Of a DNA stretch of 64,000 bases, positions 33,800 to 38,016 are shown piece by piece. This stretch comes from Escherichia coli (GTDB taxonomy: Bacteria; Pseudomonadota; Gammaproteobacteria; Enterobacterales; Enterobacteriaceae): assembly GCF_003334765.1 (NCBI RefSeq), contig NZ_QOWT01000002.1, one strand, 5' to 3'. The position numbers were made by a program, and so were the translations under genes. The notes beneath the pieces were generated by a model. The model had not been told where the DNA came from, did no database searches, and saw only the letters and a program-made list of their open reading frames with translations. Position 1 is the stretch's first letter; each line of letters begins with the position of its first letter.

Positions 33800-34055
33800 T
33801 ACTATGCTCCCGTAAATTCCGATTGGATATCGGCTATGGATTTTCCTGGCCCGCCTTTTGCGGGCAATCATAATCCTGGTCGTTACGGGCGAGTTTTTCC
33901 ATCTTTTGGATGTTTTTTCAGCGTTTTCTGTTGGCTCGATTCATCAGAAAAAATGTTAGCGCGGTCAAGTTTTCACCGCAAAGGTATTTAAAAGGTATTA
34001 TTAAGTGGTATTGTCATCGCGTACCTTACATTACCTGTCATGAAGGAATTAAAAG

Positions 34056-35333
34056 ATGAAAACAACAGCAAAGCTGTCGTTCATGATGTTTGTTGAATGG
34101 TTTATCTGGGGCGCGTGGTTTGTGCCATTGTGGTTGTGGTTAAGTAAAAGCGGTTTTAGTGCCGGAGAAATTGGCTGGTCGTATGCCTGTACCGCCATTG
34201 CGGCGATCCTGTCGCCAATTCTGGTTGGCTCCATCACTGACCGCTTTTTCTCGGCGCAGAAAGTGCTGGCGGTATTGATGTTCGCAGGCGCGCTGCTGAT
34301 GTATTTCGCTGCGCAACAGACCACTTTTGCCGGGTTCTTCCCGTTACTGCTGGCCTACTCGCTAACCTATATGCCGACCATTGCGCTGACTAACAGCATC
34401 GCTTTTGCCAACGTGCCGGATGTTGAGCGTGATTTCCCGCGCATTCGTGTGATGGGCACTATCGGCTGGATTGCCTCCGGTCTGGCATGTGGTTTCTTGC
34501 CGCAAATACTGGGGTATGCCGATATCTCACCGACTAACATCCCGCTGCTGATTACCGCCGGAAGTTCTGCTCTGCTCGGTGTGTTTGCGTTTTTCCTGCC
34601 CGACACGCCACCAAAAAGCACCGGCAAAATGGATATTAAAGTCATGCTCGGCCTGGATGCGCTGATCCTGCTGCGCGATAAAAACTTCCTCGTCTTTTTC
34701 TTCTGTTCATTCCTGTTTGCGATGCCACTAGCGTTCTATTACATCTTTGCCAACGGTTATCTGACCGAAGTTGGCATGAAAAACGCCACCGGCTGGATGA
34801 CGCTCGGCCAGTTCTCTGAAATCTTCTTTATGCTGGCATTGCCGTTTTTCACTAAACGCTTTGGTATCAAAAAGGTATTATTGCTTGGTCTGGTCACCGC
34901 TGCGATCCGCTATGGCTTCTTTATTTACGGTAGTGCGGATGAATATTTCACCTACGCGTTACTGTTCCTCGGTATTTTGCTTCACGGCGTAAGTTACGAT
35001 TTTTACTACGTTACCGCTTACATCTATGTCGATAAAAAAGCCCCCGTGCATATGCGTACCGCTGCGCAGGGGCTGATCACGCTCTGCTGCCAGGGCTTCG
35101 GCAGTTTGCTCGGCTATCGTCTTGGCGGTGTGATGATGGAAAAGATGTTCGCTTATCAGGAACCGGTAAACGGACTGACTTTCAACTGGTCCGGGATGTG
35201 GACTTTCGGCGCGGTGATGATTGCCATTATCGCCGTGCTGTTCATGATTTTTTTCCGCGAATCCGACAACGAAATTACGGCTATCAAGGTCGATGATCGC
35301 GATATTGCGTTGACACAAGGGGAAGTTAAATGA
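34056..35333 (+). CDS. yegT: Nucleoside:H+ symporter-family MFS transporter YegT
   Basis: 425-aa polytopic ORF. Confidence 0.88.
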   Translation: MKTTAKLSFMMFVEWFIWGAWFVPLWLWLSKSGFSAGEIGWSYACTAIAAILSPILVGSITDRFFSAQKVLAVLMFAGALLMYFAAQQTTFAGFFPLLLAYSLTYMPTIALTNSIAFANVPDVERDFPRIRVMGTIGWIASGLACGFLPQILGYADISPTNIPLLITAGSSALLGVFAFFLPDTPPKSTGKMDIKVMLGLDALILLRDKNFLVFFFCSFLFAMPLAFYYIFANGYLTEVGMKNATGWMTLGQFSEIFFMLALPFFTKRFGIKKVLLLGLVTAAIRYGFFIYGSADEYFTYALLFLGILLHGVSYDFYYVTAYIYVDKKAPVHMRTAAQGLITLCCQGFGSLLGYRLGGVMMEKMFAYQEPVNGLTFNWSGMWTFGAVMIAIIAVLFMIFFRESDNEITAIKVDDRDIALTQGEVK

Positions 35334-36334
35334 AAACAGAACGTATTCTCGGTGCTCTTTATGGGCAGGCGTTAGGGGATGCGATGGGGATGCCCTCCGA
35401 GCTTTGGCCACGCAGCCGCGTTAAAGCACACTTTGGCTGGATTGACCGTTTTCTTCCTGGACCAAAGGAGAATAACGCGGCCTGTTATTTTAACCGCGCC
35501 GAATTCACCGACGATACCTCGATGGCGCTGTGTCTGGCGGATGCGTTACTGGAACGTGAAGGCAAGATCGATCCGGATCTGATTGGGCGTAATATTCTCG
35601 ACTGGGCGCTGCGTTTCGACGCCTTTAACAAAAACGTACTAGGTCCGACCTCGAAGATTGCGCTTAACGCCATTCGCGACGGTAAACCCGTTGCTGAACT
35701 GGAAAACAACGGCGTGACCAACGGCGCAGCGATGCGCGTCTCGCCATTAGGTTGTTTGCTTCCGGCGCGTGATGTTGATTCCTTTATTGATGATGTAGCG
35801 CTGGCGTCCAGCCCGACCCATAAATCCGATCTGGCGGTTGCAGGCGCGGTAGTCATCGCATGGGCGATTTCTCGTGCCATTGACGGAGAAAGCTGGTCAG
35901 CGATTGTTGATTCCCTGCCTTCAATTGCGCGACATGCACAGCAAAAACGCATCACTACGTTCAGCGCCTCACTGGCGGCGCGGCTGGAGATTGCGCTGAA
36001 AATTGTGCGCAATGCCGACGGCACCGAATCCGCCAGCGAACAGCTTTACCAGGTCGTTGGCGCAGGTACCAGCACTATTGAGTCCGTTCCGTGCGCCATT
36101 GCGCTGGTTGAACTGGCACAAACCGACCCGAATCGCTGCGCCGTCCTGTGCGCTAACCTTGGCGGCGACACAGACACCATCGGTGCTATGGCGACGGCAA
36201 TTTGCGGCGCGTTGCATGGCGTTAACGCTATCGATCCTGCGTTAAAGGCGGAACTGGATGCGGTAAATCAGCTTGATTTCAACCGCTATGCCACAGCGCT
36301 GGCGAAATATCGTCAACAACGGGAGGCGGTATGA
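35330..36334 (+). CDS. yegU: ADP-ribosylglycohydrolase-family protein YegU
   Basis: 334 aa; ATGA overlap with yegT. Confidence 0.88.
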   Translation: MKTERILGALYGQALGDAMGMPSELWPRSRVKAHFGWIDRFLPGPKENNAACYFNRAEFTDDTSMALCLADALLEREGKIDPDLIGRNILDWALRFDAFNKNVLGPTSKIALNAIRDGKPVAELENNGVTNGAAMRVSPLGCLLPARDVDSFIDDVALASSPTHKSDLAVAGAVVIAWAISRAIDGESWSAIVDSLPSIARHAQQKRITTFSASLAARLEIALKIVRNADGTESASEQLYQVVGAGTSTIESVPCAIALVELAQTDPNRCAVLCANLGGDTDTIGAMATAICGALHGVNAIDPALKAELDAVNQLDFNRYATALAKYRQQREAV

Positions 36335-37296
36335 GCGGCGCTCGATTACACACGCTGCTGCCTGAATTAACCACGCGTCAGTCGGTGATGGTCGTCGGCG
36401 CGGCGGTCATTGACGTGATCGCCGACGCTTATGCCCTCCCCTGGCGTGGGTGCGATATCGAACTGAAACAGCAGAGCGTTAACGTTGGCGGCTGCGCACT
36501 GAATATTGCCGTGGCGTTAAAGCGCCTCGGCATCGAAGCGGGTAATGCCTTGCCGCTCGGTCAGGGCGTGTGGGCGGAGATTATTCGCAACCGGATGGCA
36601 AAAGAGGGCTTAATCAGCCTGATCGATAACGCCGAAGGTGATAACGGCTGGTGTCTGGCGCTGGTTGAGCCGGATGGCGAACGCACTTTTATGTCATTCA
36701 GCGGTGTTGAAAATCAGTGGAATCGCCAGTGGCTGGCGCGATTAACCGTTGCGCCTGGCAGCCTGCTCTATTTTTCCGGTTATCAACTGGCCTCGCCCTG
36801 CGGCGAATTGTTAGTGGAATGGCTGGAAGAGCTGCAAGACGTGACGCCGTTTATCGATTTTGGCCCACGTATTGGCGATATCCCGGATGCATTACTGGCG
36901 CGGATCATGGCCTGTCGACCTTTAGTGTCGCTCAATCGTCAAGAGGCTGAGATTGCCGCCGAACGTTTTGCTTTATCCGCAGAGATAACAACACTTGGCA
37001 AGCAATGGCAGGAGAAATTTGCCGCGCCGTTGATCGTTCGTCTCGATAAAGAAGGCGCATGGTATTTCAGCAACGACGCTTCTGGCTGCATTCCGGCATT
37101 TCCAACGCAAGTTGTCGACACCATTGGGGCGGGCGACAGTCATGCCGGTGGCGTACTTGCCGGGCTGGCCTCTGGTCTGCCACTGGCGGATGCCGTATTA
37201 CTGGGCAATGCAGTGGCGTCGTGGGTTGTCGGGCATCGGGGCGGTGATTGTGCGCCAACGCGCGAGGAACTACTCCTCGCACACAAAAACGTATAG
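36331..37296 (+). CDS. yegV: PfkB-family carbohydrate/nucleoside kinase YegV
   Basis: 321 aa with C-terminal GAGDSHAGG motif; ATGA overlap with yegU. Confidence 0.88.
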   Translation: MSGARLHTLLPELTTRQSVMVVGAAVIDVIADAYALPWRGCDIELKQQSVNVGGCALNIAVALKRLGIEAGNALPLGQGVWAEIIRNRMAKEGLISLIDNAEGDNGWCLALVEPDGERTFMSFSGVENQWNRQWLARLTVAPGSLLYFSGYQLASPCGELLVEWLEELQDVTPFIDFGPRIGDIPDALLARIMACRPLVSLNRQEAEIAAERFALSAEITTLGKQWQEKFAAPLIVRLDKEGAWYFSNDASGCIPAFPTQVVDTIGAGDSHAGGVLAGLASGLPLADAVLLGNAVASWVVGHRGGDCAPTREELLLAHKNV

Positions 37297-38016
37297 ATCG
37301 CTGCGACAGTGGCTAATGCTGTACTCAATAGGCCGTTGCTGTTGGTCAAGCGCCACTTGCTTGATCACCAGCACCGGTATTTTGCTATCTAACTGAATAT
37401 GTGACTGAAACTCGGCATCCGGCATCCGGGCGCTAACGCGGGAACGCGTACGTTGTGGGTAAATGTGCTGGCTGCGGAAATAGTCATAAAGTGAAATCCC
37501 GATGGCATCAACATCATGAATTAAATGCGCCGGAACCCACGATTCCTCAATCGATACCGCATCTTCATCGACATAGCGAATACGCTTAAGCAAAAAGACA
37601 TCACTTCCTGCTTCGACCGCCAGCTGCTGCGCGACTTCTTCGGGACATTTCACGACACGCTTGTTAACCCATAGCGTATCGGGCTTTTTCCCGCGCAATA
37701 CCACCTGCTGAGAAAAACCTCGCGCTTCTTTCAACGAGTATTCGAAGATGTTGTTGATCTGCGTGCCGTAACCGCGCGAACGCGTCACCACACCCTCTTC
37801 TTCCAGCGCCTGCATCGCCTTGCGCACCGTAATGCGCGAAACGCCGGTTAACTGACTTAAATCACGCTCACCGGGCAAAATATTGCCATGCTCCAGCACC
37901 CCGCTGCGCACGGCATTTTTTACCGTTTCGGCAAACTTAATATAAAGCGGCGTGTTATCCGCCGCTAAAATACGCTCGTTCAGTTGGGCAATCAGCTGGG
38001 TATGCGCTTGTTCCAT
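37270..38016 (-). CDS. yegW: GntR/HutC-family transcriptional regulator YegW
   Basis: 248 aa with N-terminal winged HTH; convergent with yegV, 27-bp overlap. Confidence 0.88.
   Translation of the reverse strand: MEQAHTQLIAQLNERILAADNTPLYIKFAETVKNAVRSGVLEHGNILPGERDLSQLTGVSRITVRKAMQALEEEGVVTRSRGYGTQINNIFEYSLKEARGFSQQVVLRGKKPDTLWVNKRVVKCPEEVAQQLAVEAGSDVFLLKRIRYVDEDAVSIEESWVPAHLIHDVDAIGISLYDYFRSQHIYPQRTRSRVSARMPDAEFQSHIQLDSKIPVLVIKQVALDQQQRPIEYSISHCRSDLYVFVCEE

Follow-up and report, generated by a model that had tools for sequence, protein, structure and literature searches.

The yegTUV-yegW Locus of Escherichia coli as a Candidate System for Importing and Degrading a Non-Canonical Riboside

Introduction

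Which compound do the products of yegT, yegU and yegV handle in Escherichia coli, and in what order? The three genes lie together with the repressor gene yegW at positions 34056-38016 of the stretch of DNA analysed here, a window of 64,000 nucleotides from E. coli (NCBI RefSeq assembly GCF_003334765.1, contig NZ_QOWT01000002.1). We propose, with a probability of roughly 0.5, that yegTUV-yegW is a self-contained and locally repressed cassette for the uptake and breakdown of a non-canonical riboside, in which the kinase YegV would act before the hydrolase YegU. The genes, the operon and the repressor are already known. New are a pair of candidate operators, the counts of the module across phyla, the gene fusions and the argument for a kinase-first order. 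A first-pass annotation, made from the sequence alone, had described the locus as an uncharacterised salvage cassette working in the order of import, deglycosylation and phosphorylation of the freed sugar.

Results

The Locus

The locus is made up of the following genes, of which the last two overlap at their ends:

34056-35333, plus strand: yegT, 425 amino acids, predicted riboside:H+ symporter of the NHS family (MFS), first of three chained open reading frames

35330-36334, plus strand: yegU, 334 amino acids, predicted metal-dependent ribosyl hydrolase of the ADP-ribosylglycohydrolase (ARH) family, with the ARH fold

36331-37296, plus strand: yegV, 321 amino acids, PfkB-family kinase of a subfamily of its own, ribokinase-like fold

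37270-38016, minus strand: yegW (ggaR), 248 amino acids, GntR/HutC-type (UTRA) repressor of yegTUV

37270-37296: tail-to-tail coding overlap of 27 bp between the convergent ends of yegV and yegW, read from the sequence

These open reading frames are real, conserved genes and not chance ones. A 4.3-kb stretch was 100% identical to E. coli chromosomes annotated with yegT, yegU, yegV and yegW, and the yegTUV-yegW stretch was found in 5420 of 5426 complete E. coli genomes, which places it in the core genome. The open reading frame coordinates and profile scores bore out the gene content, positions and domain calls of the first-pass annotation. The ATGA coupling that it had noticed is visible at both junctions, yegT/yegU at 35330-35333 (aATGAaa) and yegU/yegV at 36331-36334 (tATGAgc), and its convergent GntR/HutC regulator at the 3' end corresponds to yegW on the minus strand, with domains PF00392 and PF07702. 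The yegV/yegW pair is one of the convergent overlaps (excludons) supported by RNA sequencing that are listed in PMC12288877.

A Conserved Module with Exchangeable Transporters

The initial protein search for relatives returned Enterobacteriaceae only, at 82% identity or more, and a search of representatives was needed to reach other phyla. The full scan of cluster representatives with a threshold of E<=1e-30 yielded 234 YegU relatives. Several of them, 600-760 amino acids long, were fusions of the two enzymes, of the PfkB-ARH as well as the ARH-PfkB type. The existence of the fusion in both orders indicates, therefore, that the hydrolase and the kinase act together. One representative, P0161, was a tandem ARH-ARH protein of 692 amino acids.

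A scan of one genome per species provided 79 YegU-type loci, in which tblastn was used to count the neighbours lying no more than 3.5 kb from the hydrolase gene. The calling of open reading frames was unreliable in high-GC loci, where frames on the wrong strand were found, and presence or absence was therefore taken from tblastn. The 79 loci span Enterobacterales, Vibrio, Aeromonas, Lachnospiraceae and other Clostridia, Bacillaceae, Lactobacillaceae, Negativicutes, Actinomycetota, Chloroflexota and others. A YegV-type kinase was present near the hydrolase in 65 of the 79 loci and a YegW-type regulator in 50. Carriers of three families were encountered, namely NHS (25/79, in Enterobacterales and Vibrio only), NCS1 (20/79) and PnuC (15/79, in loci of the Clostridia type; 150 bits with TIGR01528, cut-off 42.45), and 60 of the 79 loci possessed at least one of them. 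A few loci had ECF or ABC importers instead. The conserved unit consists of the hydrolase, the kinase, an importer of the nucleoside, nucleobase or vitamin type and a UTRA repressor, and most of the operons hold only these genes. The transporter family has been swapped repeatedly, a pattern characteristic of cassettes that take up and catabolise a single compound of wide availability. This comparison strengthens the proposal of the first-pass annotation that some ribosylated compound is catabolised or salvaged.

No glycogen genes appeared among the recurrent neighbours of the 79 YegU-type loci, and no ADP-ribosyltransferase among the conserved ones. In 17 loci, mostly chosen because they were without a nearby YegW-type GntR gene, no riboswitch was found upstream of the module by Rfam gathering thresholds. 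The only Rfam matches in those loci were an unrelated thiamine pyrophosphate element 5 kb off (L062) and a cyclic di-AMP element (L088). Since none of the 17 loci showed a riboswitch of the module, cobamide, thiamine and NAD as substrate ideas are without support from RNA elements.

Some loci had a particular composition. In two Vibrio loci (L029, 10047-11324; L030, 9893-11239), an additional MFS carrier of the L-lactate/monocarboxylate type (SfMCT model, 430 bits, cut-off 320) lies between the kinase and the regulator genes, and could export an acidic aglycone. The distant loci L076, L078 and L090 possess an ECF importer and, in place of the PfkB kinase, a PurM/SelD-like protein of 270-290 amino acids. 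In a metagenomic Bacillota (L009, 9945-17051), a PfkB-ARH fusion, a GntR/UTRA regulator and an ECF importer are followed by phosphopentomutase-, NCS1-, DeoC aldolase- and alcohol dehydrogenase-like genes. The neighbourhood of L009 suggests a link to pentose/deoxypentose phosphate catabolism in that organism. In Leuconostoc (L062, 7082-7978), nadC, encoding quinolinate phosphoribosyltransferase (277 bits vs 198), is located directly upstream of the hydrolase, NCS1 and kinase genes, and a nadC homologue of the same cluster was seen near the hydrolase gene in L082 (4947-5801). Together they give a weak hint of a pyridine link. Nicotinamide riboside, which the PnuC carriers and these nadC genes brought to mind as a substrate, was not adopted, the adjacency being rare. 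Moreover, other substrates are also represented among the carriers of the TIGR01528 model, and E. coli is already equipped with PnuC/NadR.

The Transporter YegT

YegT matched the nucleoside permease model TIGR00889 with 654.9 bits (cut-off 446.1) over residues 1-418, and its translation contains GVSYD, the GxxxD protonation motif of transmembrane helix 10. A crystal structure of YegT at 3.1 Å was published by Xiao et al. in 2025, with a description of the GxxxD/Asp315 protonation site and of Gly311 (PMC11979927). In the same work isothermal titration calorimetry gave no signal for YegT with the nucleosides bound by NupG (uridine, adenosine, cytidine and guanosine), and the residues of NupG in contact with uridine were not conserved in YegT (PMC11979927). 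NupG contacts the ribose through R136, T140 and E264, which XapB and YegT share with it, whereas the base contacts differ (PMC8042404). Canonical nucleosides are thus unlikely substrates. Because of the absence of a calorimetric signal with them and of the loss of the base-contact residues, a non-canonical substrate is to be expected, and the residues suggest that the riboside is unusual in its aglycone or its configuration.

The Kinase YegV and the Hydrolase YegU

YegV matched PF00294 (PfkB) over its full length with 193 bits, and stayed under every NCBIfam equivalog cut-off, with 82.1 vs 299.65 bits for the ribokinase model TIGR02152 and 60.6 vs 341 for NF008353. The nearest solved structure was that of E. 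coli RbsK (1e-41), ahead of the adenosine kinases. Among 27 relatives the positions D28, G53-G54, N58 and G266-x-G268-D269 (the GAGD catalytic motif) were invariant. The family also has motifs of its own, DNGWC, GERTF, SGY and GAGDxH, in which invariant Trp, Tyr, His, Glu and Arg residues were gained. In a profile alignment to RbsK (1GQT), the equivalents of D16, G42, N46 and D255 were kept and those of N14, K43 and E143 were not, the corresponding positions being occupied by a hydrophobic residue, a Cys and a variable residue, respectively. We take D16, G42, N46 and D255 of RbsK to be the residues that hold the 2', 3' and 5' hydroxyls, and N14, K43 and E143 to be those in contact with the anomeric O1 and the ring O4. 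Judged by these residues and scores, YegV is a PfkB kinase and not an orthologue of RbsK. It was still cited as an uncharacterised sugar kinase in the literature of 2025, and our literature searches for a biochemical characterisation of a YegU/YegV-type module gave nothing beyond PMC10819704. The article on the ribose kinase RikA (STM3547) was considered for this purpose and put aside, as it deals with a different PfkB gene having different neighbours.

The sole Pfam match of YegU was PF03747 (ADP_ribosyl_GH), with 224.7 bits over model positions 1-285 of 287. The motifs GDAMGMPSE, TDDT, PTH and GGDTDT were conserved over 38 relatives, D61 and D282 being invariant and T60, D62, D280 and T283 conserved in at least 90% of them. 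TDDT, GGDTDT and the Glu following GxxxG align with the ligands of the two metals and the catalytic Glu of ARH3. The family also keeps N131, G132 and H164, which align with an Asn, a Gly and a His of ARH3. In the latter enzyme the pyrophosphate, including the phosphate on C5'' of the ribose undergoing cleavage, is bound by the Gly and the His, and the Asn faces that distal ribose on its C4''/C5'' side. The adenine clamp of ARH3, formed by a Phe and a Tyr (Phe129 and Tyr135 in the Latimeria enzyme), is replaced in YegU by variable, non-aromatic positions (E123 and V129). The closest solved relative is the archaeal protein MJ1187 (1T5J), whose function is uncharacterised.

Every biochemically defined ARH acts on ADP-ribosyl conjugates, and YegU, as a member of PF03747, keeps all the catalytic and metal residues. 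It might accordingly be asked whether YegU resembles DraG or ARH1 in removing ADP-ribose from an endogenous protein or nucleic acid, with neighbours that would be unrelated or would recycle the ADP-ribose. Such a role is very improbable. The scores of YegU are far under the equivalog cut-offs of DraG (TIGR02662, 79.5 vs 337.05) and Tri1 (NF041672, 69 vs 490), the ARH3 clamp is missing and no ADP-ribosyltransferase recurs in the 79 loci. Moreover, the hydrolase is tightly linked to the kinase, up to fusion, and to importers of small molecules, and repression through a metabolite sensor of the UTRA type is typical of catabolic operons.

The Order of the Two Reactions

The members of the PnuC family work by facilitated diffusion and trapping of the phosphorylated substrate, as described for PnuT (PMC5749112). 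Because this family relies on trapping by phosphorylation, the PfkB kinase is the natural trapping enzyme in the operons linked to PnuC. These PnuC partners, the residues lost by YegV, the residues of the 5''-phosphate site kept in YegU and the precedent of PsuK and PsuG (see Discussion) all lead us to favour, as far as alignments and neighbourhoods can tell, an order in which the kinase would come first and the hydrolase would then cut a 5-phosphoribosyl compound.

The reverse order, which the first-pass annotation had preferred, is not the one best supported. It supposes that YegT imports a modified nucleoside or another ribosylated compound, that YegU removes the aglycone from the unphosphorylated molecule, and that YegV serves as a second ribokinase on D-ribose. 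Indeed, the best solved relatives of the YegV family are true ribokinases, with RbsK in the first place, and in E. coli the transporter gene is followed by that of the hydrolase and then that of the kinase. Similarly, the ribose-utilisation loci of Bacteroidetes pair ribokinases with variable ribose-releasing enzymes, ADP-ribosylglycohydrolases included (bioRxiv 10.1101/574913). RikA, another enterobacterial PfkB protein whose role was formerly unassigned, phosphorylates ribose (PMC13432705), and the hydrolase occurs without the kinase in some genomes. Against this stand the score of YegV, far under the ribokinase cut-off, its loss of the equivalents of N14, K43 and E143 together with the gain of family-specific invariants, and the presence of RbsK in the same organism. 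The conservation in YegU of residues binding a ribose 5''-phosphate and the PnuC-linked operons, which fit the phosphorylation of the imported molecule itself, also speak for the kinase-first order. We consider the hydrolase-first order to be possible and, on the whole, doubtful.

Regulation by GgaR and the Proposed Link to Glycogen

YegW is composed of a GntR domain (PF00392, 58 bits) and a UTRA domain (PF07702, 123 bits), and is thus of the HutC type. It scored below the equivalog cut-offs of PhnF, HutC and TreR, and is therefore a distinct member of the HutC subfamily. In 2024 it was renamed GgaR by Saito et al. (PMC10819704). A single genomic target was observed there by chromatin immunoprecipitation on arrays (ChIP-chip), as one peak with two sub-sites. 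The target was the fbaB/yegT spacer, with a weaker site inside yegT (probe-5, yegT nt 571-869) in an electrophoretic mobility shift assay (EMSA). The 190-bp probe-2, covering the spacer, was bound more strongly than probe-5, the latter only at higher GgaR. On Northern blots, which showed the co-transcription of the three genes, the 3.3-kb yegTUV mRNA was present only when yegW was deleted. The mRNA increased about 30-fold in the deletion, with no change for fbaB (PMC10819704). With this repressor and the structure of YegT (PMC11979927), "uncharacterised" no longer describes the cassette at the level of regulation, and still applies to its substrates.

The published reading is that YegTUV acts on ADP-glucose or its precursors, through import, hydrolysis or phosphorylation, and forms a branch of glycogen metabolism under the control of an ADP-glucose-sensing GgaR. 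In PMC10819704, ADP-glucose at 10-100 µM freed GgaR from the spacer probe in vitro, and glucose and ADP did not. More glucose raised the yegTUV mRNA about 3-fold in a GgaR-dependent manner, and the yegW deletion led to glycogen levels 2-3 times higher and to poor growth on M9 glucose. In addition, yegV was among 13 glycogen-deficient mutants of the Keio collection on a medium with 1.5 mM ADP-glucose; yegT and yegU were no hits in this screen (PMC6195507).

Other observations fit this reading less well. The panel of effectors comprised three compounds, ADP-glucose, glucose and ADP, and the 3-fold induction in vivo was far under the 30-fold derepression. The article (PMC10819704) is not known to contain an enzyme assay or a test, in the yegW background, of whether the glycogen phenotype depends on yegT, yegU or yegV. 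Across the phyla, riboside- and vitamin-type carriers recur in the 79 loci and glycogen genes do not, and ADP-glucose is devoid of a C1''-ribosyl bond of the kind cut by ARH enzymes. As for the yegV mutant, we take the Keio design to keep only the last six codons of a gene, and given the overlap this deletion would probably remove also the stop codon and the last codon of yegW (37270-37275). If so, the glycogen-deficient mutant may carry an altered YegW. Altogether, a direct role of YegTUV in glycogen metabolism seems to us improbable. The ADP-glucose and glycogen data could reflect a real link, or ADP-glucose could be a look-alike of a phosphoribosyl inducer, the effects on glycogen and growth being side effects of the derepression of the kinase and the hydrolase.

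Candidate Operators

Neither a binding motif nor a footprint for GgaR is given in PMC10819704. On one side of the locus fbaB is divergent from yegT; yegX, thiD and thiM are situated on the other side. The following elements were recognised in the fbaB/yegT spacer and in yegT:

33951-33972: CRP-like site, AAATGTTAGCGCGGTCAAGTTT, upstream of the predicted yegT promoter, read from the sequence

33972-34001, plus strand: predicted sigma-70 promoter of yegTUV, with -35 TTCACC at 33972-33977, an 18-nt spacer and -10 TATTAT at 33996-34001

33980-34025: O1, candidate primary GgaR operator, AAAGGTATTT-AAAAGGTATTAT-TAAG-TGGTATT...GTACC

34863-34900 (yegT nt 808-845): O2, candidate auxiliary operator inside yegT, GGTATCAAAAAGGTATTATTGCTTGGTCTGGTCACCGC, covering codons for F-G-I-K-K-V-L-L-L-G

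The promoter showed 9 of 12 matches to the consensus and was the sole promoter-like match of the consensus scan in the fbaB/yegT spacer. In the scans for terminators and promoters, sites were not more numerous than in shuffled sequences, and this match alone was used, as a prediction.

O1 contains three direct half-sites GGTAT(T), AAAGGTATTT-AAAAGGTATTAT-TAAGTGGTATT, spaced by 11 and 13 bp, and after them GTACC in inverted orientation. O1 and the predicted -10 element overlap, and in PMC10819704 both probe-2 and the ChIP-chip peak cover O1. Across 18 distinct upstream regions of Enterobacterales, in which the flanks vary, the blocks AAAGGTATTTnAAAGGTATT, TGGTA and ACC were invariant. In Vibrio the GGTATT repeats are kept and the inverted partner is ATACC. 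A second copy, O2, was observed 880 bp downstream, with 30 of 38 positions matching O1. By comparison, dinucleotide shuffles of the spacer against probe-5 reached a mean of 21.2 (standard deviation 1.2, maximum 26), and the next best match to O1 on both strands of the 64-kb window was 23/38. O2 lies inside the weakly bound probe-5 and codes for the conserved peptide F-G-I-K-K-V-L-L-L-G. Over 25 orthologues its synonymous codons were skewed towards the motif, compared with the rest of the same genes: GGT was used in 80% vs 24%, AAG in 92% vs 29%, GTA in 60% vs 18% and TTA in 52% vs 10%. O2 is gone in Enterobacter and Cedecea. From these features we propose the GGTAT repeats as candidate GgaR operators, O1 being the probable primary and O2 an auxiliary one. 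GgaR bound to O1 would occlude the promoter, since the half-sites overlap the predicted -10 element, and O2 may aid repression by cooperative binding or looping.

The core of the CRP-like site, tGttA-N6-TCA, was kept in the same 18 upstream regions. The position of this site agrees with the CRP binding reported at fbaB<CRP>yegT by genomic SELEX, the selection of bound genomic fragments (PMC3105977). Its centre would lie at about -46 relative to the predicted promoter, an unusual spacing.

Further observations concern the upstream sequences. The YegW orthologues of other phyla are accompanied by different palindromes immediately 5' of the hydrolase gene, a difference to be expected when HutC-type repressors have diverged. 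In Aeromonas (L038, upstream of 8001), four direct ACTGGAC repeats precede the hydrolase gene, in a layout like that of the E. coli GGTAT repeats with another half-site. In the whole window WGGTATT occurs 25 times vs 12.3 +/- 3.4 in dinucleotide shuffles, none of 100 shuffles reaching 25. The excess is likely due to codon usage (GGT-ATT), which such shuffles do not keep, and these copies are not expected to be operators because ChIP-chip gave one GgaR target only. In E. coli a further ATG, located 16 nt before the start of yegT (34040-34058), is not in its frame. The counterpart of this ATG in Citrobacter, Kluyvera and Pectobacterium shares the yegT frame and would add MKDLK to the N-terminus. 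The conserved block CTGnCATGaAGGA upstream of yegT is in part the ribosome-binding site and in part a possible alternative start.

Discussion

We propose the following model for the cassette. YegT would import a riboside, recognising its ribose in the manner of NupG; the aglycone would be other than a standard base. YegV would then phosphorylate the 5'-OH of the intact riboside, which would thus be trapped in the cell. In the third step YegU, with its two-metal ARH fold, would cut the bond between C1 and the aglycone of the 5-phosphoribosyl compound. The products would be ribose 5-phosphate, entering the pentose phosphate pathway, and the free aglycone. The glycogen phenotype of the yegW deletion would be an indirect effect of the derepression of the YegTUV enzymes.

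ARH1 and ARH3 cleave alpha- and not beta-ADP-ribosyl-arginine or NAD+ (PMC9738213). Because the characterised ARH enzymes cleave only alpha-linked C1'' bonds, it is possible that the substrate is an alpha-riboside, which would explain that the standard beta-nucleosides do not bind to YegT. As a speculation, the natural substrates might be the ribosides of cobamide lower ligands (alpha-ribazole) or the ribosyl remnants of ADP-ribosylated proteins or of poly(ADP-ribose). In its boldest form, this hypothesis makes the YegU family the first ARH-fold enzymes of nutrient catabolism, hydrolysing alpha-linked 5-phosphoribosyl molecules made by YegV, with ADP-glucose as a mere mimic of the genuine phosphoribosyl inducer of GgaR. 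In this form we think it unlikely.

The closest precedent is the pseudouridine catabolism of E. coli by psuT/psuG/psuK (yeiM/yeiN/yeiC), in which PsuK acts first on the intact riboside and PsuG then releases ribose 5-phosphate. Both systems are compact cassettes of a nucleoside transporter, a PfkB kinase and a glycosidase, and the order proposed for YegV and YegU is the same. They differ in that PsuG belongs to the pseudouridine-5'-phosphate glycosidase family and cuts a C-C bond, whereas YegU is a PF03747 protein with the ARH fold. YegV, in addition, is not close to the pseudouridine kinases among solved structures, and the substrate of yegTUV is probably no standard beta-nucleoside. The 15 Clostridia-type loci, where a hydrolase-kinase pair is followed by a PnuC-family carrier, resemble the uptake systems of the PnuC/NadR type and imply trapping by the kinase. 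In contrast to these systems, the kinase is a PfkB protein and not NadR or a thiamine kinase, the later hydrolase leads to breakdown and not to the building of a cofactor, and E. coli yegTUV uses an NHS proton symporter. yegTUV works like PsuK/PsuG and the PnuC-plus-kinase systems and is a member of neither, its glycosidase being of the ARH fold; the order of its reactions is one that we infer.

At the level of the single enzymes, YegU has the same fold as ARH1, ARH3 and DraG, with the same metal ligands and catalytic Glu. The conserved Asn, Gly and His near the distal ribose and its 5''-phosphate are likewise common to them, and so, probably and by extrapolation, is the alpha-specific cleavage at C1''. 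YegU differs from them by failing the DraG and Tri1 cut-offs, by the absence of the Phe/Tyr clamp of ARH3 and by its location in an operon under metabolite control whose other genes encode a kinase and an importer, and not an ADP-ribosyltransferase. YegV, likewise, has in common with RbsK and the PfkB riboside kinases the fold, the catalytic Asp of GAGD and the Asp/Gly/Asn set, and is distinguished from RbsK by the three positions that are not kept, by equivalog cut-offs that are not reached and by its own motifs. In the rus loci of Bacteroidetes, too, ribokinases occur together with a transporter, a regulator and enzymes that release ribose; these enzymes vary, and in some species ADP-ribosylglycohydrolases are among them. 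Those loci are of the polysaccharide-utilisation type, with outer-membrane SusC/D-like parts and induction by ribose, whereas yegTUV is a three-gene system of the cytoplasmic membrane with a GntR/UTRA repressor.

Several points weigh against the model. What is said here about the substrates of YegT, YegU and YegV we infer throughout, and the promoter of yegTUV and the CRP site are predictions. The residue arguments are drawn from alignments at 20-35% identity to RbsK and ARH3, and the alpha-specificity is extrapolated from distant eukaryotic relatives. The loss of the ARH3 clamp does not exclude an ADP-ribosyl substrate, because ARH1 binds adenosine differently from ARH3. Ion coupling makes trapping unnecessary for the NHS and NCS1 carriers. 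The effect of ADP-glucose on GgaR at 10-100 µM and the glycogen phenotypes are not predicted by the model. Finally, the YegU-type hydrolase is apparently retained on its own in some genomes: in Edwardsiella (L035 and L037) and Brenneria (L032) it is found without kinase or transporter, the Edwardsiella pair keeping the regulator.

We regard the cassette as one of the riboside kinase/glycosidase type, built on an ARH-fold hydrolase; it amounts to a gap in annotation more than to anything unexpected. In the core genome of the best-studied bacterium, yegTUV is among the last operons without an assigned function, and its hydrolase-kinase pair, separate or fused, exists in at least five phyla, including abundant gut Clostridia. 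An open problem of annotation is turned into directly testable proposals by the operator motif, by the order in which the kinase comes first and by the idea of an alpha-riboside. If the last of these is true, enteric, gut-anaerobe and soil bacteria would possess a dedicated route for alpha-ribosides, for which alpha-ribazole-type nucleosides from cobamides, and ribosyl-amino acids or ribosyl-adenosine from ADP-ribosylated proteins or poly(ADP-ribose), are candidates. The identity of the substrate would give a function to many proteins annotated as "ADP-ribosylglycohydrolase family protein" or "carbohydrate kinase". It would also widen the known chemistry of the ARH fold and help to explain the change in glycogen and growth on the loss of GgaR.

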